DNA from: a virus
Strand: one strand, 5' to 3'
Virus record (IMG/VR): IMGVR_UViG_3300012971_000890
Length of the DNA: 64,000 bases
How positions within the stretch are numbered: the first letter of the stretch is position 1; the number at the start of each line of letters is the position of its first letter. The notes under the pieces were generated by a model. That model ran no database searches. It was given only the letters and a program-made list of their open reading frames with translations, and was not told the origin of the DNA. Made by a program: the position numbers and the translations under genes. Positions 14,253 through 47,949 of this stretch are shown here, in pieces.

Positions 14253-14843
14253 ATGCTGACCTTTGTGGAATTCGCCAAAGCTGCCGACGAGAGCCAGATC
14301 GACAGCCTGTACACCAAGGCCCACACCGCCGTCGAAATCGTCCGCATGTACCAGCCCGAACTGCTGGCCGACATCGCCACCATCGCCAACCTGTCGAGCG
14401 GTGCCTACGGCGTCTATAACTCCGGGGAGAACAAGAAGATGCTACCACCCGACAAGGAAAAGCAACTGGTATATTACGGGGCGGTACGGCGGCATAATCT
14501 CGACATGATCCCCAAAAAGACCCTGATGCAATATTACCCGGACCTCCACCCGGAGCAGATTCAGGACAGCGACACCATCCACGTCAACGTCCACCGCATC
14601 ATGCAGGAAAGCGACAGCGACCTGGAAGCCATCTTGGAGATCGCCTCTACCATCGTCCACGAATGCACCCACGAGAAAGAACGGGAGGCCACCGGCCAGA
14701 CCTCCGAGGTAGGGCCTGTGCGGGCCGAGCAGGCGTTCATGGCATGGGCGAGGCAGAATATGAACGCCCTGACCCGCCGCTTCCCACAACTGCAAGGCGA
14801 CGTGGTGGGGAGGAAAGGCCAACTGCCGGCAGGGAGGGTATGA
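14253..14843 (+). CDS. hypothetical protein with HExxH (HECTH) motif
   Basis: RBS GGAGAAGG; IVHECTHEKE possible metallopeptidase motif. Confidence 0.45.
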   Translation: MLTFVEFAKAADESQIDSLYTKAHTAVEIVRMYQPELLADIATIANLSSGAYGVYNSGENKKMLPPDKEKQLVYYGAVRRHNLDMIPKKTLMQYYPDLHPEQIQDSDTIHVNVHRIMQESDSDLEAILEIASTIVHECTHEKEREATGQTSEVGPVRAEQAFMAWARQNMNALTRRFPQLQGDVVGRKGQLPAGRV

Positions 14844-15490
14844 ACTTCAAACAGTGGATGCTGGCCGAAGCCGCCTTGGGGGTGCGGGACATTAAATTCG
14901 ACCCCCAGGGGAAACCCTCCCACCGAGTTGTCATTCATGGCGGCGGCACGGTCATCAACCTCACGGCCCCAGGCGGGATGGGCAAATCACCGAGGGTACT
15001 CGGCAGCCTGTCAAACCCGGACGTTTTCGGGGACACCCGCTTGCTGGATGGCGTGCCCCTGTATCAATGGCACGCCGACATCGAACGGGGCTGGGGACCG
15101 TTCCTGTATGACATTGCTATGGAATTTGCCACCCTCCGGGGCGGTTACCTCGTCTCCTCAACCTTCGTCAACCGCCTGGAGAATCGCTGGGACTTGCCCA
15201 AGGGTGAGGTCGGCGGGGATGCCAGCGAGCTTGCCGAGAAGGTCTATTACTACTACCTGCACAACCGACATGATGTGGAGGCGCATCAACCAAACATTAT
15301 GTTTTGGGACCGGGCCGAAGAACAAAACCGGATGCAATATATGTACATGCTGTATAGCAAACGCCCCACCACTCTCACCCAACTGATAGAACTCAACCGC
15401 CGGCTGGAAAGTCCCTACAAGGCGGTTCTGGTGAAGGGCATGGGCGCTGTGCCACAGCCGATCCTCAGCCTGGAAGAACTCAATGGCTAG
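14840..15490 (+). CDS. hypothetical protein (MNFKQW N-terminus family)
   Basis: ATGA overlap with upstream stop; RBS AGGGAGGG. Confidence 0.5.
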   Translation: MNFKQWMLAEAALGVRDIKFDPQGKPSHRVVIHGGGTVINLTAPGGMGKSPRVLGSLSNPDVFGDTRLLDGVPLYQWHADIERGWGPFLYDIAMEFATLRGGYLVSSTFVNRLENRWDLPKGEVGGDASELAEKVYYYYLHNRHDVEAHQPNIMFWDRAEEQNRMQYMYMLYSKRPTTLTQLIELNRRLESPYKAVLVKGMGAVPQPILSLEELNG

Positions 15491-15492
15491 AG

Positions 15493-15504
15493 CTATATAA
15501 CAGG
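15493..15504 (+). promoter_or_regulatory. GCTATATAACAG promoter-like motif
   Basis: Same 12-mer as at 8451; 16 nt upstream of the 15520 ATG. Confidence 0.45.
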
Positions 15505-15519
15505 GAACCCAGGAGGGAT

Positions 15520-15714
15520 ATGAAAACATTTGCTGAATATCTGGCAGAACAGGGTGAGGTCATCGAGGAGAAGAAGTGGATACAAAAGGCCATCAAGAAA
15601 AGCCACGAGGGATTTTGCACACCGATGACCAAGAAGACCTGCACACCCCGGCGCAAGGCATTGGCGCGGCGATTCAAGAAGGGTGGCGATCTCCATGACG
15701 AAGGTGATGATTGA
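15520..15714 (+). CDS. small basic protein (MKTFAEY N-terminus)
   Basis: RBS AGGAGGG; 64 aa, Lys/Arg-rich. Confidence 0.5.
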   Translation: MKTFAEYLAEQGEVIEEKKWIQKAIKKSHEGFCTPMTKKTCTPRRKALARRFKKGGDLHDEGDD

Positions 15715-16058
15715 TAAACCTGCACCCAGAATTGGAACTATTACGCCTGGCGATGGACGGAGAGGGACGCCCGGAGAACTACCACACGCTGGTCTTCTAC
15801 GGCCCTGGTGTGGCCCACAAGGTCAACTTTGACGTGAACGTGTTCCATGCCCGTTACATGATTTCCAACATGGATCGCGCCCACCCGGAATACGGCTGGC
15901 AGGTAATTCTGGCGAACGGCACCCTGGAGGACGCGGTGACCACGCTGGAGAGCTACCGCCCCTTCCTGCCGTGGAACAAGATTGACGAGGTTTGGCAGGA
16001 GGCCATCCGTATCGCCCCAGACGGCTCAGGATTCGGTGGTTTTGCAAACTGGCACTAA
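15711..16058 (+). CDS. hypothetical protein (TTG start; alternative ATG at about 15753)
   Basis: 115-aa ORF; start uncertain. Confidence 0.4.
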   Translation: MINLHPELELLRLAMDGEGRPENYHTLVFYGPGVAHKVNFDVNVFHARYMISNMDRAHPEYGWQVILANGTLEDAVTTLESYRPFLPWNKIDEVWQEAIRIAPDGSGFGGFANWH

Positions 16059-16059
16059 C

Positions 16060-16377
16060 ATGAAGTCGTTTAACGAGTGGAAAAAACAGGAGAAGAAGTC
16101 TGACGAGTCGCTGCGAAAGGACCGCCACGGTGGCCTCGTGCCCGACAATATGAAGCGGGCCAAACACGTTGACCTTATCACACTGCCGCCCGATGTCGAG
16201 GGGACGAACTGCGGGAACTGCCTTTACTACGTCCCGGACGGCAGCCACGGCTGGTGCGAACACAAGGACGTAATGATGCACGTCAACAAACGCATGTGCT
16301 GCAAGTATTGGGACAACGACGGGGTGGAACGCTCCTGGGGTGAGATGGAGGGAAGTGGGGTCGGGGGTAAGAAATGA
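16060..16377 (+). CDS. small cysteine-rich protein (MKSFNEW N-terminus)
   Basis: NCGNCLYY..HGWCEH..MCCKYW cysteine cluster. Confidence 0.5.
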   Translation: MKSFNEWKKQEKKSDESLRKDRHGGLVPDNMKRAKHVDLITLPPDVEGTNCGNCLYYVPDGSHGWCEHKDVMMHVNKRMCCKYWDNDGVERSWGEMEGSGVGGKK

Positions 16378-17129
16378 TTGGCTTCAAACAGTGGTTCTCG
16401 GAAAGCAAAGGCATCCGCGTCACCGACGAACTCGAACAGCAGATTGATGCCCTATACCCCAAGGTCCACCAGGCTGCACTCCAATCAAAACAGAGCGGCG
16501 AAGATATTGAAGTTGGCGATGCCACGTTCAGCGACCAATACTTCAAGGGTCGGCCCCGCCAGGTGAACATTCAGGTCATCAACGATCCGAGCATGGACTT
16601 CCACGGGGACTTCAACCCGGTCATGGGGGTCCGTATCAACGTCGCCCACACCGAGCCGCAGAACATCACCCCCAAATGGGCACGCCGGCTCCTGGTCCAT
16701 GAGTTGGGGATTCACGCCCAAGACCCCAAGATTGCTGATTTCCAGACCTTTGCTAAAATGGACAGGAACTATGTCCAGGCGGGTGAAGTTGGCCATTACA
16801 CCCAGGACATGGAGTTCGACGCCTACACCGGGCAAATAGTTGATTCGCTCATCAAGGCTGCCAAAATGAACCGGGGCCAGCCCCAGGCCGGTCAAATCGC
16901 CAAACTATTTGACGACACCTTGGAATTCATTCGCAGCCCCGACGCCGCCAAGGCCCGCCAGGTATACGGCATCATCGCGGACCCAGAATACTGGAAATCG
17001 TTCCACATCTACTACCAGCACTCGACCCCGCAACAGAAGAAACGCCTATTCCAGAGAATATACAAGGCAGTGCAGGACGCCAAGGCTATTTTGGGGCCGG
17101 TGCAGCAAGGGTTCGTCTATAATCCTTGA
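16374..17129 (+). CDS. hypothetical protein (MIGFKQW N-terminus)
   Basis: 251-aa ORF, ATGA overlap; HELGIH (HExxxH, non-canonical). Confidence 0.5.
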   Translation: MIGFKQWFSESKGIRVTDELEQQIDALYPKVHQAALQSKQSGEDIEVGDATFSDQYFKGRPRQVNIQVINDPSMDFHGDFNPVMGVRINVAHTEPQNITPKWARRLLVHELGIHAQDPKIADFQTFAKMDRNYVQAGEVGHYTQDMEFDAYTGQIVDSLIKAAKMNRGQPQAGQIAKLFDDTLEFIRSPDAAKARQVYGIIADPEYWKSFHIYYQHSTPQQKKRLFQRIYKAVQDAKAILGPVQQGFVYNP

Positions 17130-17653
17130 GGCGTTATCCCCAGGTCGCGCAGATCGAGCAGAGCGTGGTAGTTGTAGCCCTTGAAAAGTTTGGACGCTCC
17201 CGCCTGGCGGTCCACTACCGCCACAATGCCCAGGATCAGGGCACCCTTGGCCTCGGCAGCCCGTAATGCCTTTTGCGTCTGGGTGCCGGTGGTCACCACG
17301 TCTTCCACAATGATCGTGCCCTGCTTTGGCTCGCAGATGCCTTCCACCGCGCCGTCCTTCTTCACCACGAAGCCGCTTAATATACGGCCACGCAACTTCG
17401 CCAGGAGCAACATCGCGCCCACCAAGGGATCGGCCCCCACCGAAGGCCCGCCGATCTGCTGGGGGAAAGGGTGAAGGGTTTCAAGCAGGCAGTCCGCAAC
17501 GGTGTACAGCAACTCGCTGGTCCAGAGCTTGCTGCCGTCGATGAAGTAATTGCTGCGGCCTCCGGCGGACAATTCAAAATCGCCAAACTGGACACAGTGG
17601 GACTTCACCAGCCCCGCCAGCAGCGCCTTCTTCTCTGGGAGCAGATATTTCAT
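17117..17653 (-). CDS. pyrE: orotate phosphoribosyltransferase
   Basis: PRPP-binding IIVEDVVTTGTQ; FIDGSKLW; 178 aa. Confidence 0.85.
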   Translation of the reverse strand: MKYLLPEKKALLAGLVKSHCVQFGDFELSAGGRSNYFIDGSKLWTSELLYTVADCLLETLHPFPQQIGGPSVGADPLVGAMLLLAKLRGRILSGFVVKKDGAVEGICEPKQGTIIVEDVVTTGTQTQKALRAAEAKGALILGIVAVVDRQAGASKLFKGYNYHALLDLRDLGITPQGL

Positions 17654-17883
17654 GCGTACTTGTCCAGGGAGATGACCGAGGTTCGCCCGTCGTGCATCTC
17701 GGTATAAGTTACGGTCACCCCGTCCACCTGATAACTCCGGTCGCGGATCGCCCTGAGAATGTAGGGGAGGGTTGCCCCAATCACGATTTTGCCCTCCTCA
17801 TCAAATAACTCGGCGTAGATCGTGTCGGGGGCCAGCCCGCCATGTTCATTCCCCAGCATACGCACGTTGGTCAGTTTATACAA
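17650..17883 (-). CDS. hypothetical protein
   Basis: 77-aa ORF; overlap with pyrE start suggests coupling. Confidence 0.4.
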   Translation of the reverse strand: MYKLTNVRMLGNEHGGLAPDTIYAELFDEEGKIVIGATLPYILRAIRDRSYQVDGVTVTYTEMHDGRTSVISLDKYA

Positions 17884-18100
17884 CCTTCTTCCCCTTCAAC
17901 GGCTTGATGGGGGCGTACTCCAGTTGTTTCAGCGTCTCCTCCAACTTCTTGGCGTCGTCGCCGTAGCAGAAGTGCCGGTCAGCACCACCACTTTTGGAAA
18001 AGTGGATGGTGGCCGTATACTGCCCCGTGGGGCCATTGGTGAAGTTACAACGCGCGATGGCGTCCAGGTTGATATATTCGTTGCCTACAAATAGAAACAT
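17876..18100 (-). CDS. hypothetical protein
   Basis: AGGAGG RBS plus ATG (MFLFVGNEY) on the minus strand. Confidence 0.45.
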   Translation of the reverse strand: MFLFVGNEYINLDAIARCNFTNGPTGQYTATIHFSKSGGADRHFCYGDDAKKLEETLKQLEYAPIKPLKGKKVV

Positions 18101-18108
18101 ATTACCTC

Positions 18109-18117
18109 CTGTTTCCA
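18109..18117 (-). promoter_or_regulatory. TATAAT-type -10 element (minus strand)
   Basis: CTATAATGG about 12 nt upstream of the RBS of the 18100 gene, directly after the upstream terminator. Confidence 0.3.
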
Positions 18118-18123
18118 TTATAG

Positions 18124-18162
18124 ACAAAAAAAGAAGCCGGTGCTTTGGTAAGCACCGGCTTC
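18124..18162 (-). terminator. rho-independent terminator (also hairpin on plus strand)
   Basis: GAAGCCGGTGC-loop-GCACCGGCTTC perfect 11-bp stem followed by T7 on the minus strand. Confidence 0.65.
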
Positions 18163-18180
18163 GGGTTTGTCAGGGGCGAG

Positions 18181-19287
18181 TTAGGCGTTCGCCCCCGCCG
18201 GTTGCGGCTGTTGCATCCGCACGGCCTGGGCCTTGAGGTCGGTGATGGCCGTCTCCAGGTTGGTGAGCCGGCGCATCTTGGTGCGGTTGGTGGCGAGGTC
18301 GCTCACGTCACGCAGGGGAATGGTCTGGAGCTTGAGGGTCCAAGCCTCGATCTCCTCGAAGATGCTGCCGCTCGAACTGATGCGGTCGTAGGCGTTGCGA
18401 ACCGTCATCTCGTCGTCCGTCAGCAACTCCAGGCCCTCCGGGGACGCCAGGATCGTGGGCAGGCGGTCGCGGGTGTCCTTGACTTCCTTGATCTGCCGGT
18501 TGGCCACCAGATCATCGAAGGTCTTGTGGTTGGCCTCGTCGCTCTCGATCCAGGCCCGCAGCGTCTCGTCGCGCATGATCTGGCGGTAGTGCGACAGCAG
18601 GTTGCTCTGCGCCTTGGGGGCGGTGATGGTGCCACCCTCGGCGGCAATGCGAGCGCGGTGCTTGAGCAGCAGGTCGTAGGCATCCAGGCGGTTCTGCATG
18701 GAGTCCTTGTTCTCCCGCGTGCGCCGCGCCAACTCGTCCACCGTCGTGCCGGCCTGGTACAACTGCCACAGCACTTCCATCTGGTCGGGCTTCAGCCAGC
18801 CCTTCTTGGTGGAAACGTGCCAGTCCAGCAGCAACTTCTTCACATCCAGGTCGCTGGCTGCCTGGGGGATGCGGCAGAAGTAGATGTCCCGGATATTGGC
18901 CTTGATGGCGTCGGGAACCTCGGCGGACTGCAACAACTTGCGGAGGCACACCAAACGCCGGTTGCCCTCAGCAACAATGTCATCGGGGCGGACGAAGGGC
19001 ATTTCAATCAGCCCGCCGTCCCCCAGGATTTGCTGGTAGAGGGCCTTCGTGTCCGCCTGCTGCCAGATGCGCTCCTCCATCTGCTGCTCGGTCACGCCGT
19101 TGGAGAAACCCAATTCGGCGTGCAGGCGGGGATTGCTGAGGTCCAGGTGCAGATTGGCCACCGGACCCTTCTCCACCCCAATTGGGAGGGGCTTGCCTCC
19201 GACGTAGATGTTGTGGGTGGGAGTGGCGGGCGCGGGCCGATGCGGGGCGGGCGCAGCGTTCCGCCGCGCCCCAGGGGGGTTAGGCAT
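18181..19287 (-). CDS. ParB-like nuclease domain protein
   Basis: LHLDLSNPRLH, GGLIEMPFVRPDD..EGNRRLVCLRKL resemble the ParB N-terminal domain. Confidence 0.55.
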   Translation of the reverse strand: MPNPPGARRNAAPAPHRPAPATPTHNIYVGGKPLPIGVEKGPVANLHLDLSNPRLHAELGFSNGVTEQQMEERIWQQADTKALYQQILGDGGLIEMPFVRPDDIVAEGNRRLVCLRKLLQSAEVPDAIKANIRDIYFCRIPQAASDLDVKKLLLDWHVSTKKGWLKPDQMEVLWQLYQAGTTVDELARRTRENKDSMQNRLDAYDLLLKHRARIAAEGGTITAPKAQSNLLSHYRQIMRDETLRAWIESDEANHKTFDDLVANRQIKEVKDTRDRLPTILASPEGLELLTDDEMTVRNAYDRISSSGSIFEEIEAWTLKLQTIPLRDVSDLATNRTKMRRLTNLETAITDLKAQAVRMQQPQPAGANA

Positions 19288-19419
19288 GACCTACTCCTTA
19301 CTAGAGAGAGTCAGCGACCAGCGCAGGAACACGGGTTCGTGTTGGAAACTGCGCTGGCCGGTTTGGCGACTCGATCAAACCACCCCACAGTATGGGAACC
19401 TCAAACCGATCTGTCAAGA

Positions 19420-20200
19420 TCAATCTTCGTCCTTTTCCACGGACTGGAACAGGATGTCGAACTTGCCCCGCATCACCCCCTGGATGTCGCGGGTCTTCAC
19501 CCCCAGCCGGTGGTCGGACACGCGGCTCAGGATGAAGTTGTAAGTTCTTATTTTCCCACCGCGCCCGCCGCTCCCCAGGGCGTCCTTGCGGGCCGAGGCG
19601 TAGGCGGCGTTGGCGGCATTGCGCCGTTTTTCGCGCCACCGGGCGTTGACGATCTTGATGGCCTCCTCCTTGTTCTTGCCCTGGTCGCGCCCGTTGATAA
19701 AGACCCGGATCGCCGGGTCTTTTTTATAGACGCACCGAATGGCTGAGGCCACTTTGTTTACGTTCTGCCCACCGGCATTCTGCTTCCCCGTCTGGGCAGT
19801 GATCTCCAAGTCAGAGAGCGGGATCACGTCCTTGGGATCGGCTGGGGGCAAGGGCAGGACGGCCACCGAGATCATGCTGGTCTGGCGGCGTCCCTTGGTT
19901 TCGGTGGGCGGGACACGCTGGACGCAGTGGCCCCCGGTTTCGTGCTGGAACGCCTGGAAGACGCCCCGGCCCCGGAACTGGATGATGATGTGGCCGTTTT
20001 CAGAAGTGAGGGTTTCGTGCTTGAAGCCCTTGGAATCCGCGTATTTGCGGTAGGCTTCCGCCAAGGATTCGACAAACAGTTTGCTGTCGTCGCCACCCTC
20101 ACCGAACTGAAGTTCAACGATCAGTTCGGTGGCGCGCTCAAAGGGAGTCCAGGGGCTTGTTTTGGCCGACCCACTCCTGGTGGATGTGACGCTTGAATTT
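19420..20200 (-). CDS. class I peptide-chain release factor homolog lacking domain 1 (RF1-type PxT; PrfH-like); N-terminus uncertain
   Basis: GGQ (AGGQNVNK), PPT motif (VQRVPPTETKGRRQTS), RTYNF..VSDHR blocks; homology (ELQFGEGGDD) extends upstream of the TTG ORF start toward an ATG ORF ending CTT TGA. Confidence 0.6.
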
Positions 20201-20284
20201 CTTGCTCATGGCAATCGCTCCTTTCGGTGAGAGAAAGTTTCCCACCAGTATCGTACTGGCGGGGCGGGGATTTGTCAACCCGAT

Positions 20285-20296
20285 CCTATATAGAGG
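20285..20296 (+). promoter_or_regulatory. CCTATATAGAGG promoter-like motif
   Basis: Upstream of the 20298 ATG. Confidence 0.35.
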
Positions 20297-20297
20297 C

Positions 20298-20582
20298 ATG
20301 AAATCATTTGACCAATGGCTTCGAGAAAAAGACCCGGAGTTGGTCGAGGGGCTGCTGGGAGGGCTGAGCAAGGCGGCGGCACTGACCCTGGGGTTAGGGG
20401 GCAAGGGGCTGGCGGCACTAGGAGGGGGCGCGGCGGGCACCTTGTTGGGAGGACCGGCGGGGGCGATTCCTGGCGCACTCGGCGCGATGGCGTTGGCGGA
20501 TAAACCCATCGACAAGGGGTTGAGTTACTTATTCCCAAAGGCCACCACCGACTTGATGAAGAAGAAGATGCGGAAGAAATAA
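20298..20582 (+). CDS. glycine-rich small protein (MKSFDQW N-terminus)
   Basis: 95 aa; GLGGKGLAALGGGAAGTLLGGPAG; Lys-rich tail. Confidence 0.5.
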   Translation: MKSFDQWLREKDPELVEGLLGGLSKAAALTLGLGGKGLAALGGGAAGTLLGGPAGAIPGALGAMALADKPIDKGLSYLFPKATTDLMKKKMRKK

Positions 20583-20583
20583 A

Positions 20584-20615: not shown

Positions 20616-20633
20616 CTGCGGTGGCGAACCTAT

Positions 20634-21450: not shown

Positions 21451-21831
21451 CTAGTCAAAGAACGCCCCCAGGTCAGGAGCCTCGCCCAGCTTGGGCGGGT
21501 GCTGCTTGAGGCGGTGGGCGTATAGTCGTTCCAACTCCCCCTTCTTCCAGAAGACACTTTTGATGACTTCCTGGGGCACCGGCTTGCCCTGAGCGAGCGC
21601 CACGGCGACGGCATGTTTATGGAAGTCGGCATCGGGCCAGTCCTCAATCGCCTGCCTTGACGCGCGGACTTCCGGGACGTTGCTGCATAGCGGGTAGCCG
21701 CCGTGCTGCTGACACAATTCCTGGTGGTGGCGAAATAGCGCCTCCCGGTGGGCCATCGCTTCTTCCCTGGTCATTTCCCAGGGTTCCCGGCTTTCTGCTA
21801 TCTCCAGCCACCTTCGGAAGTCAGTCATCAA
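21451..21831 (-). CDS. hypothetical protein (MTDFRRW N-terminus)
   Basis: 126-aa ORF. Confidence 0.45.
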   Translation of the reverse strand: MMTDFRRWLEIAESREPWEMTREEAMAHREALFRHHQELCQQHGGYPLCSNVPEVRASRQAIEDWPDADFHKHAVAVALAQGKPVPQEVIKSVFWKKGELERLYAHRLKQHPPKLGEAPDLGAFFD

Positions 21832-22652: not shown

Positions 22653-23114
22653 TTAGTAGAGCCGGAGCGGATGAGTCCCTTCCGGGCCGGTGATGGCGTC
22701 AATGGCGTCGGCCTGGTTGGGGCCGATGCCCAGGGCGGTGTTAGTCGCCATCCCCTTGCGGCCCTGGCCGGCGGCAGTCAGGCCCAGGTCTTGAATTAAA
22801 AAGGTTTCAAGCCCCGCGATCTCGCACAGACGCTTGACCTCCAGCAGTTCATCCTCGTTCTGGGCCTGGAGGACGACCTTGGTGGTCAGGGTGCTTTCCA
22901 GCCACTCACGCTGGTCGGGGGTGATGCGAAGAATGTCCCATATGGTGGTGCCGGAGAACCCCTGAGCCGCCTGGAGAATGCGTTCCACCAGGAAGGCGCA
23001 GGCGGCGTGGCTACCCTGGGCGATCTCCTTCCCCCTCCGCATACCCACATCCCTGCGGATCACCAGCACTTGCTTCACGTTGTCGCCGGGCTTCGGCGTA
23101 GCTGATTCCATTGG
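22653..23114 (-). CDS. peptidyl-tRNA hydrolase, PTH2 family
   Basis: KQVLVIRRDVGMRRGKEIAQGSHAA and GMATNTALGIGP blocks typical of PTH2; start uncertain (ATG 23114 or downstream GTG). Confidence 0.6.
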   Translation of the reverse strand, partial: PMESATPKPGDNVKQVLVIRRDVGMRRGKEIAQGSHAACAFLVERILQAAQGFSGTTIWDILRITPDQREWLESTLTTKVVLQAQNEDELLEVKRLCEIAGLETFLIQDLGLTAAGQGRKGMATNTALGIGPNQADAIDAITGPEGTHPLRLY

Positions 23115-23304
23115 GGCCTCGCTTGCAGTTGATTTCTTCTTTGGTATCTTCCCGTACCCAGACCAGGAAATCGCACAGGACCGCGTAACGTTCCTTTGCG
23201 TCTTCGTGCTTACTATACTCCGAGAACAACCAGTGTGCCACCTTGATTTCCAGGTGTTCCTGAAACTCCTCAAGAAAGTCGGCCATATGCTCGAATGATG
23301 GCAT
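23011..23304 (-). CDS. hypothetical protein (overlaps the PTH2 5' end)
   Basis: 97-aa ORF; overlaps the neighbour. Confidence 0.25.
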   Translation of the reverse strand: MPSFEHMADFLEEFQEHLEIKVAHWLFSEYSKHEDAKERYAVLCDFLVWVREDTKEEINCKRGPNGISYAEARRQREASAGDPQGCGYAEGEGDRPG

Positions 23305-23506
23305 TGTATCCCTCGTAGCGGTTAGGGGCCTTTTCTTCGGGGTTGGTCAGGTCGTAAAATACGGAGGCCGGAATGCCCATACTTTCGTACAACTTGCTGT
23401 TGAAATATTCAAGATCGGCGGCGAAGCCGGTGGACACAGGCGGCAAAAACAAAAACATATCTTCCAACTGATATTGCAAAGCCCATTCTTCATATGTGCG
23501 CATCAA
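23270..23506 (-). CDS. hypothetical protein (MRTYEEW N-terminus)
   Basis: 78-aa ORF. Confidence 0.4.
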   Translation of the reverse strand: MMRTYEEWALQYQLEDMFLFLPPVSTGFAADLEYFNSKLYESMGIPASVFYDLTNPEEKAPNRYEGYNAIIRAYGRLS

Positions 23507-41241: not shown

Positions 41242-41245
41242 GTCC

Positions 41246-41679: not shown

Positions 41680-41750
41680 AGCCACTGCTGGGAGTCGAAC
41701 CCAAATCTCCTGCTTACAAGACAGGCATAATGCCGTTATACGACAGTGGC
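41680..41750 (-). tRNA. tRNA-Thr (anticodon UGU)
   Basis: Acceptor GCCACTG/CAGTGGC; anticodon loop CTTGTAA; T-arm GGTTCGACTCC. Confidence 0.7.
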
Positions 41751-41758
41751 GACAGCAA

Positions 41759-42040
41759 TCAGTTATTGTTATCTATGCGCAGCATGGGCAAACTTTGTTC
41801 CAGGGAGGCACCCAGCAGCGTCATTTCGTTTTTCAAAATCTCGCGGCGTTCCGGGTCCGTGCAGTCCTGGTACTCCCGCCCCAGGGCCACCAGCTTCTTG
41901 CACCCCTCAAAGTGAGCGCGATAAAAGTCAGCTTGTACCGAACTCGCCCGTCCCTCTATTTCCTTGAGGGACTGCTCCATTGCCGCCAGGGACTCCTCCA
42001 TCTTCTCAAGAATCATGCGCTGCTTCCTGCCAATATGCAA
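41759..42040 (-). CDS. hypothetical coiled-coil protein
   Basis: 93-aa ORF. Confidence 0.35.
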   Translation of the reverse strand: MHIGRKQRMILEKMEESLAAMEQSLKEIEGRASSVQADFYRAHFEGCKKLVALGREYQDCTDPERREILKNEMTLLGASLEQSLPMLRIDNNN

Positions 42041-42521
42041 AAGTATCCTCGGTCACCATCCACTCCTTGGTATGCAGGTTCTTCAAAAACTCGAAGAACG
42101 CCCGGCATTCCCCCTCCAGCCCAAGGGCCTTGAGGGAACGCAGGCAACGGGTGATGCGAAGCCAGTTGTGGTTGGTGGTGTTCCACACGTCCTTGCGTCG
42201 TTCCGCGAAGTTTTCCGCCTTCTTGACCTTCCACTGGCCCTGGAAGTCGTGGTACTCCAGACCCAGGAAGGCCAGAAAGCGGTGGAACGACTTCAGCACC
42301 CGATACTGCATGAGCTTGTCGGCCCTGAATACCGCCGTGTCCTCTACGCTAAGGAGCGGGGCATCGGCGTTAAAGCGGCTCGGCTCGTTTAGAGGAAAAA
42401 GCCACTGTATGTAGTCATGCTCGATCTCCATATCCTCGTCGTCCATTGCGAGAATATCGTCCAGAGTCCGGCCCTCGGAGTCCTTGCCTTCGCCGGAATA
42501 AAAGTCGGTCAGTTGCGACAT
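42006..42521 (-). CDS. hypothetical protein with OGFr_N-like YIQWLFPL motif
   Basis: HDYIQWLFPLNEPS; weak family call. Confidence 0.35.
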   Translation of the reverse strand: MSQLTDFYSGEGKDSEGRTLDDILAMDDEDMEIEHDYIQWLFPLNEPSRFNADAPLLSVEDTAVFRADKLMQYRVLKSFHRFLAFLGLEYHDFQGQWKVKKAENFAERRKDVWNTTNHNWLRITRCLRSLKALGLEGECRAFFEFLKNLHTKEWMVTEDTFAYWQEAAHDS

Positions 42522-42899
42522 TTATCCCCCTTTCTCGCATTCCTCGGCGCACTCTTGGTCTACGATCCGTTTTAACTCGGCGGGGTCCACCGGCTTGACC
42601 AGATGGCGGAAGCCGTTCCGGCGGGATTCCTCGACGTGTTGCGGGAAGGCGTGGGCGCTGATGATTACCACCTTGCAGCCGGGGTGGCGTTGCTGAATTT
42701 CCTGCGCCACTTCGTAGCCGTGCCGCCTGGGGAGGCCCAGGTCCACCAAGGCTACGTCCGGGGCCAGGCACGCCAGATCAAGGCTGCCGCCGTCGTGGGA
42801 CACGCTGACCTCGAAGCCGTGCATCTCCAGCAGGGCTTTATACGAGGTAGCGGTGTCAGCGTGGTCCTCCACGATCAACACTCGACAGATGCGGGCCAT
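42522..42899 (-). CDS. response regulator receiver (CheY-like REC) domain protein
   Basis: RVLIVEDHAD, DVALVDLGLP, KVVIISAH, LVKP. Confidence 0.7.
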   Translation of the reverse strand: MARICRVLIVEDHADTATSYKALLEMHGFEVSVSHDGGSLDLACLAPDVALVDLGLPRRHGYEVAQEIQQRHPGCKVVIISAHAFPQHVEESRRNGFRHLVKPVDPAELKRIVDQECAEECEKGG

Positions 42900-43014
42900 A
42901 CAGTTCCCTTTCAACACGGGGTAACATGGAACCATGCCTCCCGCCTTGAGAGGGACGCAAACCGCGTGCCCGACGTGGGAAACGCAAGGCGACCTCTGCC
43001 GCCCACCAGTAAAA

Positions 43015-43506
43015 TCATTCTACCTGGGATTCGGGCGGTTGTAAAGCACCTTCCAAGTAAGCTTTCCACTCGGTATCGGGGAGAACACCATGCCAGTCAT
43101 CGTCAATACTCCGGTGCGCCCGCGCGTTCGCCCGCTCTTCCCGGTCCTTCAGGTAGCCCAGGTTGGGGACCACAAATAGCATCACCAGCCGGATGTCGTT
43201 TGCCGACAATCGCTTCTGACCGAGAAGGCTGCACAGAACAGAAAGTTCCGTCTCCCCCTCGTCCCATAACCACCGCCGGAAGCGGGCCAGGTCTTGGTCA
43301 GCGACCCGGCGGTGCGTGATCGGATGACCCATGAAATGAAAAATGCCAAGTAAAAGGTCGATCACCGGCACCCGCTTATGGACCTGGAACCAGGACTGGC
43401 GGTCCATCTTCTTGAGGCAGGCGTCGGTGATTTTCAGGAATCGGTGGATGGGGCTGGCATCGGAGAGGCCCGATGTCTGCTCCAGGGTGATTATTTGCCG
43501 GGGCAA
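43015..43506 (-). CDS. hypothetical protein
   Basis: 163-aa ORF. Confidence 0.4.
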   Translation of the reverse strand: MPRQIITLEQTSGLSDASPIHRFLKITDACLKKMDRQSWFQVHKRVPVIDLLLGIFHFMGHPITHRRVADQDLARFRRWLWDEGETELSVLCSLLGQKRLSANDIRLVMLFVVPNLGYLKDREERANARAHRSIDDDWHGVLPDTEWKAYLEGALQPPESQVE

Positions 43507-43742
43507 TTTTTATCCTCAAGCCGCTCCAAAGAACCCACGGCCCAACCCAATCCATAGGTCAGATCGCTCTTGGGGAGCAGTTCGCCCTTCTCGTTCCTCT
43601 CCACGACCGGCTCATTCTCGGTGTCGCCCTCCTTGGCCGCGCCATAACCGGCCAGCCACTCGGCCATTTTGCCGTTCACTTCGGGACAGTGCTGCTCGTG
43701 CTGGCCATCCTGGTGATAACAATATTTGCAGGTCAGGGCCAT
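43491..43742 (-). CDS. hypothetical protein
   Basis: 83-aa ORF; CKYC..C. Confidence 0.35.
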   Translation of the reverse strand: MALTCKYCYHQDGQHEQHCPEVNGKMAEWLAGYGAAKEGDTENEPVVERNEKGELLPKSDLTYGLGWAVGSLERLEDKNCPGK

Positions 43743-43936
43743 TAGACCACCCCTGGTAAGTCCTCGAAGGTGCCGTCGCCGTCAAGGAACGGCAATATTA
43801 TGGCCAACAATTCTTGAAGGTCCACCAATTCGCAGTCATTCTCCAGGCGGCAGGCGGGCAGGTCCGCCCAGCGTTCCTTGCCTTCCTGGTGAACCGTCAC
43901 ATGAAAACCCCCGTGGTGTACTTCTTTACTTGCCAT
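43742..43936 (-). CDS. hypothetical protein
   Basis: 64-aa ORF. Confidence 0.3.
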   Translation of the reverse strand: MASKEVHHGGFHVTVHQEGKERWADLPACRLENDCELVDLQELLAIILPFLDGDGTFEDLPGVV

Positions 43937-44297
43937 TTTTCTTTTTGGTCTTCTTCTTGGGTTTTTCTTCCGCCGCCTCGGTCACCGGATTCACGCGCGT
44001 GGTCGTCGGGAACGTGCGATAATGCGGCTTGGGGGTGCCCGGAAGCACCGACTGCACTGCCGGGTTAAACACTTCGTCTTGCGGGAGGAACGGGGGTTGA
44101 ATATATGGCCCCTTCCGCATGTGGTCCACGCCCTTGACCTTCACCAATTGGTCGGCTTTAGCGGCGTCGATCTGGCCAAGGATCATCGCCTCGTGGGGCT
44201 TGGTTTCGATGTTCGTGAGGCCGGCGTCTTGCAACAGCAGGCATGTCTCGCCCAGGTCCGCCTGTTTTTCAACATAGATCATCACATTCATGGACAC
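43926..44297 (-). CDS. hypothetical protein with Lys-rich tail
   Basis: 123-aa ORF. Confidence 0.4.
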   Translation of the reverse strand: MSMNVMIYVEKQADLGETCLLLQDAGLTNIETKPHEAMILGQIDAAKADQLVKVKGVDHMRKGPYIQPPFLPQDEVFNPAVQSVLPGTPKPHYRTFPTTTRVNPVTEAAEEKPKKKTKKKNGK

Positions 44298-44301
44298 TCC
44301 T

Positions 44302-44574
44302 TTAAGGCCCCCAATGCTCGTGGAACCCTAGTTCCTCGGACTGGATCACCTTTTTCTCGATTTCAATAATAGAGTGCCCAAGCTCGGTTTCCTGCTCGAC
44401 CTCGGCCAAGGCGAACTCCTTGCTGATGGGGCCTTGTAGGGTGTGCATCTTGAACCCCTCCGGCCACTGCCGGATATGCTCCATGACCCGCTTTTTAGTT
44501 TCCTGGTCCACTATCCGCCTCCGTGTTAATTCCAAGCTCGTCCCGAAGCTCCTGGGGAATGCCCGAAGGGGCAT
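44302..44574 (-). CDS. hypothetical protein
   Basis: 90-aa ORF. Confidence 0.3.
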   Translation of the reverse strand: MPLRAFPRSFGTSLELTRRRIVDQETKKRVMEHIRQWPEGFKMHTLQGPISKEFALAEVEQETELGHSIIEIEKKVIQSEELGFHEHWGP

Positions 44575-45982
44575 CCATCACCGATGTCCGGCCACTGCCC
44601 GTCATGGGAAACGGGATGACCTCCTTGAGCGACGATTCTCCACAGAGTAGCATAACCAGGCGGTCTATGCCTAGCGCAATTCCCCCGTGCGGAGGCGTGC
44701 CCAGGTCGAAAGCCTCCAGCATGTGGCCCACACTGTCCAGCGTGTCGGGCTGATTGTAGCCCATGTTGCGAAAAGTGGCCTCCAAAATCTCCCGGCGGTG
44801 GGCGCGGATGCTGCCACTCCCGATCTCGTAGCCGTTGCACACAAGGTCATACTGATATGCCTGCACCCGCTCCAGATTTATTCCCTGCATGTGCCATTCC
44901 AGATGCTCGGCAATCGGCATCGAGAAGGGGTTGTGCATAAAAGTATAATCCCCCTTGGCGTCCAGCCGGTCTTCCGCCGTGACGACTTTCTTGTACATGG
45001 GGAAACGAGTCACCCAACAGAAGGCCAACAGGTTCTCAGCCTTTTCCTGGGGCGTGCGGATGTCAGGTTTGTCGGTCCCGTACATTTCCATCGCCTCGGC
45101 GTGGGTCAGCACCGGGAAACAGGAACGGCAGCCGTCCAAAAGGTCATAGCGGCTGTCCGTCTGGTCATTACACTTGCGCCCGGTCTTGGAACAGCAGAAT
45201 CGCACAACGTCGCTAATATGATGGAAAATACGCCATTCCTCCGGGAAGGCCATTTCCACGTCCAATTGCGTGAACTCAAACCCCCGGTCGTGGCGCAGGG
45301 ACTCGTCGCGGACGCACCTGGCGATCTGATAGTACCCCTGGAAACCCGCCGTCATTAGCAACTGCTTATATTGCTGCGGACTCTGGGGCAGGGCGTAGAA
45401 CTTCCCCGGCTGAAGGCGGGACGGCACCACAAAATCGCGCGCCCCCTCCTTCGTGGACTTGGTAAGGAGTGGCGTTTCGATCTGGGTGAACTTGGTCACC
45501 GAGCATTCACCCAGGATTTGATGGATGCACTTATAAACCTGGGCGCGGATAGTCAGGTTTCGCTGCATCCGCCTGCGGCGCAGGTCCAGGTAACGGAAGC
45601 GGAGCCGCATCTCCTCGTTAATATCACGCCCATCCCCGTCAATCGGGATCGGCAGTTCCTTGCACTTGTTGAGGACCGTGCAAGACTCCACCACGACCTC
45701 CACCGTGCCGGTGGCCATGTCCGGGTTGACGAGATGTTCGGGCCGCTTCACGATCCTGCCGGTGATCTCCACCACGTCTTCGGCGTTCAAGTCCTGCATC
45801 ATGTTGCGGCCCACGCACTGCACGATCCCGCTAAAGTCGCGGAGGTCCACAAAGACCAGCTTGCCGTGGAGACGCACCGTGTTCACCCAACCGTGCAGTC
45901 GCCACAAAGTAGCATCCGCGCCGCCGTTACCAAAGATTCGAGGGGTGGAGGATGCTTCGGTTAATTGTCCTGGCTGTTTCAT
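44495..45982 (-). CDS. aspS: aspartyl-tRNA synthetase
   Basis: OB-fold LHGWVNTVRLHGKLVFVDLRD; motif 2 IARCVRDESLRHDRGFEFTQLDVE; motif 3 GGIALGIDRLVMLL. Confidence 0.85.
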   Translation of the reverse strand: MKQPGQLTEASSTPRIFGNGGADATLWRLHGWVNTVRLHGKLVFVDLRDFSGIVQCVGRNMMQDLNAEDVVEITGRIVKRPEHLVNPDMATGTVEVVVESCTVLNKCKELPIPIDGDGRDINEEMRLRFRYLDLRRRRMQRNLTIRAQVYKCIHQILGECSVTKFTQIETPLLTKSTKEGARDFVVPSRLQPGKFYALPQSPQQYKQLLMTAGFQGYYQIARCVRDESLRHDRGFEFTQLDVEMAFPEEWRIFHHISDVVRFCCSKTGRKCNDQTDSRYDLLDGCRSCFPVLTHAEAMEMYGTDKPDIRTPQEKAENLLAFCWVTRFPMYKKVVTAEDRLDAKGDYTFMHNPFSMPIAEHLEWHMQGINLERVQAYQYDLVCNGYEIGSGSIRAHRREILEATFRNMGYNQPDTLDSVGHMLEAFDLGTPPHGGIALGIDRLVMLLCGESSLKEVIPFPMTGSGRTSVMDAPSGIPQELRDELGINTEADSGPGN

Positions 45983-46951
45983 AATGTTTCCAAGTAAGTC
46001 GTCACGGCGGCGACCCGCTCCTGCATGGGCATACGGCGGATATATTCTCCGTTCAACCACAGCAGTTTGCCAGGGTCGAAGGAAGCGGGCGAGTCGTTGA
46101 CCCCGGCCAGGGAAAAGCAGTCGATCAGCTTCTCCACCGAGAATATCTCCGTCGAGCCGTCCAAGGCCCAGCCCAGGCGGGCCAGGTAGTTGATGAGGGC
46201 GGCGGGCACGAACCCCATCTTCTGGTAGTATCCCAGGACCGCCGGGTTCAGGTCGTTTCGCTCCCTCACGTCTTGTTCGCTGAAACCGAGCTTTTTTAAT
46301 TTCGCCAGCACGTCCGCAGTCATGAACTGGTCCAGATCGCGCTTGCTCAGCTTCTTTTTCGAGCCGGGGGCGCAGATAAACGACAGGTGGGCAAAACGCG
46401 GCTCATCCCACCCCAAGGCCCGAAATAGCGCCAACTGGATCGGCAAGTTGCTCAGGTGTTCCTCGCCGCGCAGTATGTGGGTCACGCCCATGTCGTGGTC
46501 ATCGACCACCGTTGCGAAATTATACAGGAAGGTGCCGTCCGACCGCCTTATAACCGGGTCTTGAATGAGTTTGTCATCCCAACTGACCTTCCTCCGAATC
46601 AAATCGAAACAGCCGATGCCCACGCCGTCGTCCCAATGAGGTATGCTGAGCCGCACTGCCTTGCCGTCCTGGTAGGCCCAGCCCGACTTCAGCATCGTGT
46701 CGCACACTTCGCGGTAGCGCTCACCACGCTTCGACTGATAAAACGGGCCTTGGTCGAAGTCGAGGCCGAGCCAGCCCAGGCCGTCGAGGATGGGCTGGAC
46801 GGCTTCGGCCAGGTTGCGTTCGGTGTCGGTATCGTCAATGCGGAGGATGAACTGGCCTTTGTGGTGGCGGGCATAAAGCCAGTTATAGAGGGCAGTGCGG
46901 ACGCCGCCGATGTGCAGGTAGCCGGTGGGGCTGGGGGCAAAGCGTGTGACG
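45979..46951 (-). CDS. glutamyl-tRNA synthetase catalytic core (GluRS/GluQRS-like, no anticodon-binding domain); start codon unresolved
   Basis: HIGH region RFAPSPTGYLHIGG; KMSKS as KLSKR; ends after LLWLN block; no in-frame ATG near RFAPSP (possible ATT or long N-terminal extension). Confidence 0.7.
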
Positions 46952-46954
46952 ACT

Positions 46955-47197
46955 CTAGTAATAGTAGCCCTTCCAGGCGAAGAAGATTCGCCACACGATG
47001 TAAATGATGGCCGCGACACCGCCAAGCTCCCCCAGGAAGTGCAAAACGGCGGACAGCCGTTTGTATTTCCGCGCATAAGCAAACCAAGACGCCAGGCACA
47101 GGCCCGCCACGAAGACAATGAGGGCGACTAGCATCACATTGTCCAGCCATTCGAGGAAGTGCCACCGTTCCACGATGCGCTGGGTATGAGGGTTCAT
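46955..47197 (-). CDS. small membrane protein
   Basis: Two TM helices; 80 aa. Confidence 0.45.
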   Translation of the reverse strand: MNPHTQRIVERWHFLEWLDNVMLVALIVFVAGLCLASWFAYARKYKRLSAVLHFLGELGGVAAIIYIVWRIFFAWKGYYY

Positions 47198-47209
47198 GTG
47201 CGGACTCCG

Positions 47210-47536
47210 TTAAGCCGCAGGTTCGATGGTGGAACTCATGGAACCCTTGCAACGGGCAATCATCTTGTCCGGGCCGAAGGCGTGAATCTGTTCCTGCTTC
47301 AACTCCGCGTGTTCCTTGGTGGTCGTCAACAAGATTGTCCGGCTTTGCTCGTGGACTTCCTTGGCGTGCTGCATCCCCTTCTCCGGTGGAAAGCCGAAAA
47401 GTTTCTGTAACATGCCGATGACGTACTCAAAGGAGTGGTCGTCGTCGTTGTGCAGGATCACGTTGTACGGCGGCTGCCGCTTGGCCTTCGTTTCCTCTTT
47501 CTCCCGTGGCTTAGGTGTCACTATTGTACTGGTCAT
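47210..47536 (-). CDS. clpS: ClpS-like protease adaptor
   Basis: PPYNVILHNDDDHSFEYVIGMLQKLF core matches ClpS. Confidence 0.7.
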   Translation of the reverse strand: MTSTIVTPKPREKEETKAKRQPPYNVILHNDDDHSFEYVIGMLQKLFGFPPEKGMQHAKEVHEQSRTILLTTTKEHAELKQEQIHAFGPDKMIARCKGSMSSTIEPAA

Positions 47537-47738
47537 GCTTTTCTCCAGGTTGTTGAATCCCCCCTACTGTACCGCCGCACTCGCCCACTGTAAACCCTTT
47601 TCCCAGAAGGATGAAAAGGTGGTCGAGATGGGCCAGGGACACGCGGGGGTCCATGCCTGCAAACAGGTAGTCGATGGCCCAGGTGGACGGCACCGGCGGC
47701 GGAAGTGCCGTTACCCACTGCACTTCCGTTTCAAACAT
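47511..47738 (-). CDS. hypothetical protein
   Basis: 75-aa ORF. Confidence 0.25.
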   Translation of the reverse strand: MFETEVQWVTALPPPVPSTWAIDYLFAGMDPRVSLAHLDHLFILLGKGFTVGECGGTVGGIQQPGEKHDQYNSDT

Positions 47739-47949
47739 CCTGTTCCTTTGCCCACTGCTCGTAGGTCTTCATGCGGAGGCGGGGGCGGGCGTGCTTGTAG
47801 TGCAGGTAATAGGTCAGGCCCGTGGGTGCGGTCAACGGTTGCACGCTGATGAGCTTATCCGCGATCAGTTGGGGGTAGATACGCCGGACGAGGGGAATTT
47901 GGAAGCGCTTGAAGTCGCCGTCACCGCACCATTCCTTGTATGTTCGCAT
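47731..47949 (-). CDS. hypothetical protein (MRTYKEW N-terminus; C-terminus MKTYEQW)
   Basis: 72-aa ORF. Confidence 0.4.
   Translation of the reverse strand: MRTYKEWCGDGDFKRFQIPLVRRIYPQLIADKLISVQPLTAPTGLTYYLHYKHARPRLRMKTYEQWAKEQDV

Follow-up and report, generated by a model that had tools for sequence, protein, structure and literature searches.

A leader resembling the T4 capsid targeting sequence at the N-termini of otherwise unrelated proteins in a huge phage

The capsid targeting sequence (CTS) of phage T4, MKTYQEFIAE (PMC8442874), is an N-terminal leader of about ten residues carried by otherwise unrelated proteins; in the T4 genome (NC_000866), ipII and ipIII begin MKTYQEFIAEA and ipI begins MKTFKEFTST. 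Mutagenesis of the IPIII CTS assigned targeting to residues 4 and 7, which direct packaging into the prohead core, and processing to residues 8 and 10, which direct cleavage by the prohead protease gp21; an Asp at position 10 permits targeting without processing (PMC9026906), so uncleaved tagged proteins are possible. Basicity is a trait of the T4 internal proteins that does not define the CTS, which packages foreign proteins too (PMC9026906).

Other routes into the head are also known. T4 packages the enzyme Alt by means of a cleaved N-terminal propeptide, although its leader, MELITELFDE, is not of the MKT[YF]xEF type, and the T4 annotation includes short ORFs, alt.-1 and alt.-2, that repeat the beginning of the gene for a packaged protein. 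The giant phages phiKZ, 201phi2-1 and SPN3US load many proteins, enzymes among them, through N-terminal propeptides cut at x-x-Glu by a T4-related prohead protease, and SPN3US gp53 and gp54 are paralogues with identical N-termini (PMC5694885). Most propeptides in these phages are 80-160 residues long, share no short consensus and are cleaved at A/S-x-E (PMC5694885), whereas the leader described here is short and T4-type.

We analyzed a 64,000-nucleotide stretch of viral DNA (hereafter the window), in which 11 or 12 of about 120 genes encode the N-terminal leader M-[KR]-[ST]-[FY]-x-[EQ]-[WFY]. The phage is a huge soil phage, and the tagged proteins are otherwise unrelated. We consider this heptapeptide likely to be the front of a T4-type CTS of about 10-13 residues, M-K-[TS]-[FY]-x-[EQ]-[WFY]-[LIVMF]-x-E. 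The T4 form, MKT[YF]xEF[IT]xE, and the form found here, M[KR][ST][FY]x[EQ][WFY][LIVMF]xE, are nearly identical as consensus sequences: residues 4 and 7 are aromatic, residue 8 is hydrophobic, and the Glu at 10 precedes a small residue. As in T4, several of the tagged genes are adjacent; the capsid protein of the lineage is of gp23 type, and its relatives have a gp21-type protease. The two systems differ in that position 7, which is Phe in T4, is mostly Trp here; that at least 11 tagged genes occur in 64 kb, compared to 3 or 4 in the whole T4 genome; and that the cargo is mostly acidic or neutral and larger, reaches 251 aa and includes a predicted phosphatase, whereas the T4 internal proteins have pI 8.9-9.5. 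In addition, some members here have no cleavage motif, and in one protein the tag appears a second time near the C-terminus. The T4-type CTS itself is known; what would be new is a further case of it, in this huge phage.

The leader family in the window

The original prediction listed nine such N-termini, all of which are present in the sequence. Seven of its coordinates were right, while 21831 and 23506 were off by 3 nt because a preceding in-frame TTG codon had been counted as the start; the true ATG starts are minus-strand positions 21828 and 23503. We found two additional members, 2300 (MSDFKLWLEVLES) and 14253 (MLTFVEFAKAADES), and a looser one, 60575 (Table 1). The sequences downstream of the tag had also been described as unrelated, which all-against-all BLASTP with the first 12 residues removed bears out for nearly all pairs. 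The exception is 14253 and 16374, with 64% identity over the 14 residues directly after the tag (E=0.02), a weak similarity that suggests distant paralogy.

Table 1. Tagged genes, named by the position of their start codon, and late-promoter-like motifs in the window. A slash follows the Glu of a hydrophobic-x-Glu motif.
Feature	Coordinates	Strand	Length (aa)	N-terminus	Remarks
Tagged NIF/HAD-type phosphatase	1647..2300	-	217	MSDFKLWLEVLE/S	Pfam NIF 3.7e-11
Tagged protein with HExxH motif (VHECTHE)	14253..14843	+	196	MLTFVEFAKAADE/S	Degenerate tag
Tagged protein	14840..15490	+	216	MNFKQWMLAE/A	Leader one residue shorter than others
Tagged basic protein	15520..15714	+	64	MKTFAEYLAE/Q	pI 9.2; closest to T4 MKTYQEFIAE/A
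Tagged protein, Cys-rich cargo	16060..16377	+	105	MKSFNEWKKQE	Weak DUF7828 match
Tagged protein with invariant HELGIH motif	16374..17129	+	251	MIGFKQWFSE/SKGIR	
Tagged basic protein, Gly/Ala-rich cargo	20298..20582	+	94	MKSFDQWLRE/K	pI 9.8
Tagged protein	21451..21828	-	125	MTDFRRWLEIAE/S	IAE ending at residue 12
Tagged mini-portal	23270..23503	-	77	MRTYEEWALQYQLE	Remainder resembles T4-type portal segment; no clear cleavage motif
Tagged protein	27078..27353	-	91	MKSYKEWYRVLLKME	No canonical cleavage motif
Tagged mini-capsid	47731..47949	-	72	MRTYKEWCGDGDFKR	gp23 segment and second tag
Possible loose member	60306..60575	-	89	MKHFTTWNPQ	Aromatic only at 4, 7; PSSM rank 6
CTAAATA, T4-type late-promoter-like	14222..14228	+			Upstream of tagged cluster 14253-17129
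CTAAATA	2306-2312	-			Ends 5 nt before 2300 ATG
CTATATA	15493-15499	+			Upstream of 15520
CTATATA	20286-20292	+			Ends 5 nt before 20298 ATG

A comparison with shuffled controls had been proposed, and it places the leader far above chance (P ~1e-10; binomial P ~6e-11 for the nine Trp-type members with curated starts). With starts picked blind to the motif, 6 of 120 proteins matched M-x(1,2)-[FY]-x-x-W, whereas 2000 shuffles of the N-terminal 40 residues gave 0.32 on average and never more than 3; 12 of 120 matched when any aromatic residue was accepted in the last position (shuffle mean 1.8, maximum 7). Across all six frames there are 16 ATG-initiated Trp-type matches, 10 of them at credible gene starts.

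Most start codons are supported by other evidence. The starts of 14253, 14840, 15520, 16374, 21828 and 23503 coincide with independent gene calls on public contigs, giving the lengths in Table 1, as does that of 60575, which is fixed by a tRNA-Gln gene (60578-60650) directly upstream. Gene 2300 is called at its full 217 aa, and the start of 47949 matches its 71- and 74-aa orthologues. For 16060 and 20298, both the public gene calls and the caller used here begin slightly upstream, at non-ATG codons (six codons upstream in the public calls for 16060); the CTATATA motif before 20298 favours the tagged start. For 27353, our caller picked a TTG 33 nt inside the ORF.

The cargo includes a predicted phosphatase (2300, whose DxDET motif comes after the leader), two related His-Glu-motif proteins, small basic proteins, the mini-capsid, the mini-portal and several unknown folds. 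Just three proteins (15520, 20298 and 47949; pI 9.2-9.8) are basic; pI values among the rest are 4.4-7.7, and lengths go up to 251 aa. From its first residue on, the 15520 protein is weakly similar to phrog_8765, 'internal virion protein' (E=0.16). Gene 14840 overlaps its upstream gene at ATGA and has the Shine-Dalgarno sequence GGGAGGGT. In the AlphaFold model of the 16374 protein, residues 1-12 are unstructured and precede a folded domain.

Correspondence with the T4 sequence and head genes of relatives

The positions conserved here, aromatic 4 and 7, hydrophobic 8 and Glu near 10, are those mapped in T4. Within the window, aromatic 4 and 7 define the search pattern; independently of that pattern, orthologue alignments A1 and A3, like the phosphatase family, show an invariant F4 and W, F or Y at position 7. 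Positions 8 and 10 lie outside the search pattern for 29 non-redundant tags from related phages, of which 28 have L, I, V or M at position 8 and 13 have E at position 10. At 80 capsid loci, a hydrophobic-x-Glu motif ends at residues 9-14 in 20 of 30 tagged N-termini compared to 207 of 881 untagged ones (odds ratio 6.5, P=1e-6). Seven of 11 window members have such a motif (LAE, LAE, FSE and LRE at residue 10, VLE and IAE at 12, ADE at 13), and the remaining four checked, 16060, 23503, 27353 and 47949, have no clean site.

Applied to 1208 T4 ORFs, a PSSM built from metagenomic tags only gives its four highest scores to gp61.1, ipII, ipIII and ipI, and gp24, which is also cleaved by gp21, comes seventh. 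The same matrix puts 11 window members among the 12 best-scoring of 880 window ORFs, led by 20298, 15520 and 16060 in that order; the twelfth member, 14840, has a register one residue shorter and is not scored by it.

A search of related phages, also proposed originally, found the tag in both orthologues and metagenomic relatives. The leader and its Glu are retained in the 14253 family at 40-43% identity, including a homologue in relative L089 (43% identity) that begins MKSFIQWLEQS about 2 kb downstream of the capsid gene and one in LR756511 that begins MRTWHEFVKAVDE. They are likewise retained in 16374 orthologues at 47-66% identity. Seven orthologues of 14840 (36-48% identity) retain F3, the aromatic residue, E10 and A/V11, and the 20298 homologue in L084 begins MKKFSEWLEDKDPE. 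The phosphatase family retains leader and Glu down to ~29% identity, as F-[KR]-x-W-[LIV]-E ahead of the DLDETL motif; its other, mostly more distant, homologues have no leader.

Relatives carry T4-type head genes. Homologues of T4 gp21 occur in 74 of the searched loci, almost all within the 80 capsid loci, and gp20 homologues in 37. In LR756511, protease, scaffold and capsid genes lie in a row and five tagged genes form a cluster; in other relatives (e.g. L084, L058, L033, L089), tagged genes cluster near the capsid gene. In the window there are two fragments, one gp23-type and the other weakly gp20-type, and no prohead protease, scaffold or full-length capsid gene was found in it or in 10 kb on either side. 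From the relatives and the fragments, we infer that this phage has head genes of its own.

If the leader acts as the CTS does in T4 IPIII, aromatic residues 4 and 7 would dock the newly made protein on the scaffolding core of the assembling prohead, and the capsid shell would close round the core. A gp21-type prohead protease would then cut after the Glu of hydrophobic-x-Glu, at about residues 8-13, and the leader would leave the head while the mature cargo remained inside with the DNA and was injected when the next cell is infected. For this phage, docking, cleavage, packaging and injection are all proposed by analogy. Such a mechanism would make the tagged genes candidates for internal or ejected proteins of this huge phage, and the close match to the T4 CTS suggests that the leader probably marks proteins that this phage injects into its host.

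Competing explanations

A targeting signal was among the readings first offered for the tag, and the evidence above supports it and gives it a name, a T4-type CTS. The leader might instead be a docking or targeting peptide for another destination, such as a virion compartment, a chaperone, a membrane, or a host or phage machine, its likeness to the T4 CTS reflecting a common short helix motif and not function. Several observations fit this reading: the phage's own head module is absent from the window and its 10 kb flanks, several members have no cleavage motif, the cargo is unlike the T4 internal proteins in size and charge, and the tagged mini-capsid gene lies among translation genes. Moreover, T4 gp61.1, which has the same leader, is annotated only as a hypothetical protein and is not among the head proteins in the cited T4 literature. 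We nevertheless judge another destination unlikely, since the conserved positions are those mapped for targeting and processing in T4, hydrophobic-x-Glu is enriched directly after the tag, the tagged genes of relatives cluster beside protease, scaffold and capsid genes, and the leader has no hydrophobic stretch like that of a secretion signal.

The tag could also be a translation-initiation or early-elongation context, as the original prediction suggested, with favoured codons after the AUG raising expression and the peptide itself having no role. Lysine (AAA or AAG) as second codon, with Ser or Thr third, is common at bacterial and phage N-termini, and every copy but one is at a start codon. 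The proposed check for nucleotide-level conservation, however, came out against it: among leader copies, identical amino acids share a codon in just 44% of pairs, and nucleotide identity over codons 2-7 averages 0.51. The use of different synonymous codons points to selection on the peptide. Conservation is strongest at aromatic 4 and 7 and at hydrophobic 8 rather than at codons 2-3, and it extends as far as a Glu near residue 10. Among phosphatase homologues, the spacing between Met and the F-x-x-W core ranges from 1 to 8 residues, and there is a conserved in-frame copy near a C-terminus. Together, these observations make a role in translation very improbable.

Equally hard to sustain is the proposal that the tag is a functionless relic or linker of modular gene shuffling, a common 5' segment that once let recombination swap the cargo. 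The clusters in the window and in LR756511 differ in cargo and share the tag and a promoter-like motif, the mini-capsid gene has the tag on both sides of its capsid fragment, and T-even internal-protein loci are variable hotspots. As history, then, shuffling could be the route by which the family spread. It does not account for the family's upkeep: the low nucleotide identity, together with a leader kept under purifying selection in orthologues at 40-66% identity, indicates that the peptide is selected today, and the copies match too poorly, over too short a stretch, for homologous recombination to operate at present.

Chance or mis-called starts, to which the non-ATG calls upstream of 16060 and 20298 and the internal TTG call for 27353 might point, are refuted with near certainty by the shuffle enrichment, which holds with motif-blind starts, by the independent gene calls for most members, and by orthologues that carry the tag.

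Head-protein fragments and a late-promoter-like motif

The 47949 protein, or mini-capsid, carries the most conserved segment of T4-type gp23 after its N-terminal tag, matches phrog_138 'major head protein' (1.8e-9) and is 58% identical to the LR756511 capsid protein. As originally noted, it also bears MKTYEQW near its C-terminus; this copy is in frame (47772-47752) and is followed by AKEQDV and the stop codon. Relatives keep the mini-capsid as a short gene, including the C-terminal MKTY[ED]QW, and its neighbours are translation genes (ClpS, aminoacyl-tRNA synthetases, RRF) in a conserved block, not head genes. The 23503 protein, or mini-portal, has matches to Portal_T4 (E=0.0044) and phrog_213 (E=0.0011) that fall short of the curated thresholds. 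It can be aligned with 'EERW..QDEDFWIPIRP..YFRNKL', a portal segment of relatives, and with residues 355-378 of T4 gp20. The N-termini of both fragments align to their parents (capsid 'QRL[FY]NE[IM]', portal 'EERW'), so their likeness to the tag may be partly by descent.

According to a review of T4, the most conserved region of gp23 is Gol, the region that binds EF-Tu and sets off the Lit defence. Speculatively, the tag could have uses beyond cargo loading, the mini-capsid and mini-portal being assembly regulators, EF-Tu binders, or decoys for the host's immune sensors of capsid or portal proteins; we regard this as a long shot.

CTAAATA is the predicted late-promoter consensus of the T4-like phage Aeh1 (PMC1524935). 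The motif CTAWATA occurs 13 times in the window compared to 2.9 expected, a count reached in none of 100 shuffles, and precedes four tagged genes and one tail-fibre-like gene. It is not enriched before tagged genes at the 80 capsid loci (2 of 30, compared to 50 of 881). In LR756511, the same motif is found 8-10 nt upstream of tagged genes.

Leader-bearing proteins and the T4 capsid targeting sequence

The original prediction described nine proteins in the window, named here by start-codon position, whose N-termini begin with a nearly identical heptapeptide (the tag, or leader), and offered a translation context, a targeting signal or a remnant of gene shuffling as explanations. All nine N-termini are present, with two of the coordinates 3 nt off (the true ATG codons lie at 21828 and 23503, and an in-frame TTG comes before each of them), and the further copy of the tag noted at the C-terminus of the 47949 protein is real. 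Additional members are listed in the table. The downstream sequences are unrelated, as had been claimed, once the first 12 residues are removed, except for a weak similarity between 14253 and 16374. A targeting signal proved to be the right one of the three explanations, and it corresponds to a known system, the capsid targeting sequence (CTS) of phage T4.

Positions of the features discussed, with strand where assigned
Feature	Position	Strand	Remarks
Additional tagged protein	2300	-	N-terminus MSDFKLWLEVLES
Additional tagged protein	14253	+	N-terminus MLTFVEFAKAADES
Looser tagged protein	60575	-	MKHFTTWNPQ; start fixed by the tRNA-Gln directly upstream
C-terminal tag of 47949 protein	47772-47752		MKTYEQW
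Mini-capsid	47731-47949	-	72 aa; counterpart at L097 2175-2399
Mini-portal candidate	23270-23503	-	77 aa; weak alignment to a portal (gp20) segment
CTAWATA sites	761, 2306(-), 2888, 8452, 14222, 15493, 20286, 26238, 39110, 40319(-)		
Translation gene set	26778-60650, 19420-20064, 22653-23111, 34740-35501, 44495-47536	-	13 tRNA genes, release-factor homologue, PTH2, ClpS, aminoacyl-tRNA synthetase genes (seryl-tRNA-synthetase-like catalytic fragment, AspRS, GlxRS-like protein)
HNH endonuclease			
Laminin-G tail-fibre-like paralogues			
M-x-LRF-x-DGFDHY paralogues	5945-10550	+	four consecutive genes, ~340 aa each

The T4 CTS, MKTYQEFIAE, undergoes a single cleavage and its cargo is retained in the head (PMC8442874). 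It is the sole thing that T4 Ip1-3, anti-defence effectors that each block a different GmrSD restriction enzyme, have in common (PMC12373910), and the ip genes of T-even phages are recognised by it (PMC12373910; PMC3012670). Mutagenesis of the IPIII leader showed residues 4 and 7 to be the main determinants of capsid targeting and residues 8 and 10 to govern processing, with Asp at residue 10 blocking cleavage while targeting was retained (PMC9026906). In our reading of the T4 genome, ipII and ipIII begin with MKTYQEFIAEA and ipI with MKTFKEFTST. In the window tags, positions 4 and 7 are aromatic; position 8 is hydrophobic in 8 of 11 tags, and 7 of 11 have hydrophobic-x-Glu with its Glu at one of residues 10-13. 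The best cases, MKTFAEYLAE/Q, MKSFDQWLRE/K and MNFKQWMLAE/A (slash, end of the site), are near-copies of the T4 sequence. The T4 IPs are basic, whereas most of the window cargo proteins are not.

When 1208 T4 ORFs were scored with a PSSM built from metagenomic tags only, gp61.1, ipII, ipIII and ipI took the first four ranks. Among 880 ORFs of the window, the same matrix placed every one of the 12 members except 14840 in the top 12; 14840 has a register one residue shorter, which the model does not score. None of the papers searched had the tag heptapeptides that were tried. That the leader directs these proteins to a destination other than the prohead core strikes us as rather unlikely. We regard the window, part of a distant huge soil phage, as carrying a CTS family of the T4 type whose candidate cargo set is unusually large and partly enzymatic.

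T4 gene 61.1 (NC_000866, 18966-19130(-)), whose product outscores IPI-III with the tag matrix, encodes a 54-aa hypothetical protein with the N-terminus MKTFKEFIKEDMV, and T4 itself may here have a CTS-bearing protein that has gone unrecognised.

Selection on the leader peptide

The view of the leader as a pure relic of gene shuffling fails because the leader is under purifying selection in orthologues. The 16374 family (nine sequences at 47-66% identity, from phages of ~44% G+C) keeps F4, with position 7 aromatic and position 8 hydrophobic, and is invariant over E10-S-K-G-I-R; the 14840 family (36-48% identity) keeps F3, an aromatic residue, E10 and A/V11. Homologues of 14253 begin with MKSFIQWLEQS in the related metagenomic locus L089 and with MRTWHEFVKAVDE in LR756511. 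Among homologues of the 2300 phosphatase, those down to ~29% identity have F-[KR]-x-W-[LIV]-E right in front of the catalytic DLDETL, while others, mostly more distant, are without it, so that the leader here is an add-on module.

A translation-initiation or early-elongation context was not borne out either: synonymous codon variation among the copies, their variable distance from Met and the C-terminal copy in the 47949 protein all speak against it. Conservation did not extend to the nucleotide level, where only 44% of pairs sharing an amino acid used the same codon and mean nucleotide identity over codons 2-7 among the tagged members was 0.51. Selection acts on the leader peptide, not on the DNA.

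Chance is ruled against by the enrichment statistics, as M-x(1,2)-[FY]-x-x-W opens 6 of 120 proteins with gene starts picked blind to the motif (mean 0.32 and maximum 3 in 2000 shuffles of the N-terminal 40 residues) and 9 proteins with curated starts (binomial P ~6e-11). A six-frame scan gave 16 ATG-initiated Trp-type matches, 10 of which lie at credible gene starts. Independent gene calls on public contigs use the same starts for most tagged members, with upstream non-ATG starts used instead for 16060 and 20298.

Tagged genes and head genes in related phages

A search with the capsid segment conserved in the 47949 protein yielded 80 IMG/VR loci, totalling 835 kb, that surround T4-type capsid genes. 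The tag recurs in these related phages, with 30 tagged N-termini among 932 crude gene calls and the consensus M-K-[TS]-F-x-E-[WFY]-[LIV]-x-E, of which positions 2, 3, 8 and 10 lay outside the search pattern. Of the tagged N-termini, 20 of 30 had hydrophobic-x-Glu ending at residues 9-14, compared with 207 of the 881 that lack the tag (P=1e-6). In loci L033, L058, L084 and L089 tagged genes are grouped in small clusters at a distance of a few kb from the capsid gene, and LR756511 has a five-gene tagged cluster around its 14253 homologue, with cargo differing from that of the window's cluster. Because the leader was found in many of the 80 loci, it could be a general search key for first-strike effectors. 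If it works as in T4, a ten-residue pattern would reveal from sequence alone the head-loaded, injected proteins of an uncultivated huge phage, the CTS would be far older than the T-even phages where it was defined, and far more widely distributed, and the leader could serve engineering as a portable packaging tag. The mechanism itself is already known from T4; what is now shown is that the leader occurs widely in uncultivated phages whose capsids are of the T4 type.

Homologues of T4 gp21 were found in 74 of the searched loci, almost all within the 80 capsid loci, those of gp20 in 37 loci, and those of gp23 in all 80 plus L001 and L002. In LR756511 the genes run protease, scaffold, capsid, and T4-like phages have annotated head maturation proteases that match the first of these. 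In L089 the protease is at 8164-8844 and the scaffold at 8890-9789. T4 gp20, gp21, gp22, gp23 and gp24 gave zero tblastn matches in the window, which has no protease, scaffold or full capsid gene, and there are no head genes in the 10 kb on each side. The 14840 and 16374 proteins likewise matched nothing by tblastn in 50,697 phage records, and in that set these cargo proteins have no cultured-phage relatives. The portal gene of L089 (3051-5561, 836 aa) has an apparent insert relative to other portals (…CVSGDTKIATP…HNC…), which appears to be an intein or homing-endonuclease-like segment.

CTAWATA occurs 13 times in the window, where 2.9 occurrences would be expected. At most sites a gene start (783, 2300, 8478, 14253, 15520, 20298, 26278) or a tRNA-Gly (40311) follows 5-40 nt downstream. 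Four tagged genes are preceded by CTAWATA, and the same motif comes before tagged genes in LR756511. Both the T4 late promoter TATAAATA and the CTAAATA predicted as late-promoter consensus for Aeh1 are similar to it; a broader late-promoter motif showed no enrichment before tagged genes in the 80 capsid loci. We count the promoter link as no more than a side observation.

Candidate cargo and phage gene content

By analogy with T4, the leader would dock the protein onto the scaffolding core, the shell would close around the docked protein, a gp21-type protease would cut after Glu, and the leader would exit the head while the cargo remained with the DNA, later to be injected. The AlphaFold model of 16374, in which residues 1-12 are unstructured and a confident fold begins near residue 18, fits this scheme. 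Cleavage at the predicted Glu would give mature proteins that start SKGIRVTDEL (16374), AALGVR (14840), QGEVIEE (15520) and KDPELVE (20298). Candidate cargo includes a predicted phosphatase, two His-Glu-motif proteins, small basic proteins and head-protein mimics. Four members (16060, 23503, 27353 and 47949) are without a cleavage motif and may be packaged uncleaved, like the T4 E10D mutant, or not packaged.

The 47949 protein, or mini-capsid, consists of a tag, the most conserved gp23-type capsid segment (IPLVRRIYPQLIA..VQPL..PTGL) and the second tag, in frame. It matches phrog_138 (1.8e-9) and is 58% identical to the LR756511 capsid protein. Relatives keep it as a short gene (71-120 aa, all with Pfam Gp23 matches) with C-terminal MKTY[ED]QW, and it lies within a conserved block with ClpS, two aminoacyl-tRNA synthetases (GlxRS and AspRS) and RRF. 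Full-length capsid proteins contain a stretch, 'QRL[FY]NE[IM]', with which its N-terminus also aligns, so that its likeness to the tag may come in part from the parent gene. The most conserved region of T4 gp23 is the Gol region, involved in EF-Tu binding and Lit protease activation (PMC3014915), which makes the mini-capsid an interesting lead; it might bind EF-Tu or serve as an immune decoy. The 23503 protein might be the portal counterpart of the mini-capsid, a 'mini-portal', an identity that is tentative because its portal profile matches fall below curated thresholds and its alignment to the portal stretch 'EERW..QDEDFWIPIRP..YFRNKL' is gapped, with a 12-residue deletion.

The window belongs to a huge soil phage that has not been cultivated; its G+C is 55-62%, a simple codon-usage caller finds ~120 genes in it, and it lies on a 151-kb contig. 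The metagenomic huge phages LR756500, LR756501 and LR756503 are the only matches to its largest protein, at 39-40% identity. A 670-kb contig (JGI 3300047160) is syntenic with one block of the window, and contigs near-identical to the window are present in soil metagenomes (JGI 3300005764 and 3300004633; ENA ERZ27257192). Huge phages typically carry a translation gene set as dense as this one. Four paralogues share another kind of N-terminus, M-x-LRF-x-DGFDHY, and are followed by a 759-aa laminin-G-domain protein; the paralogues are probably a set of alternative tail-fibre/receptor-binding proteins.
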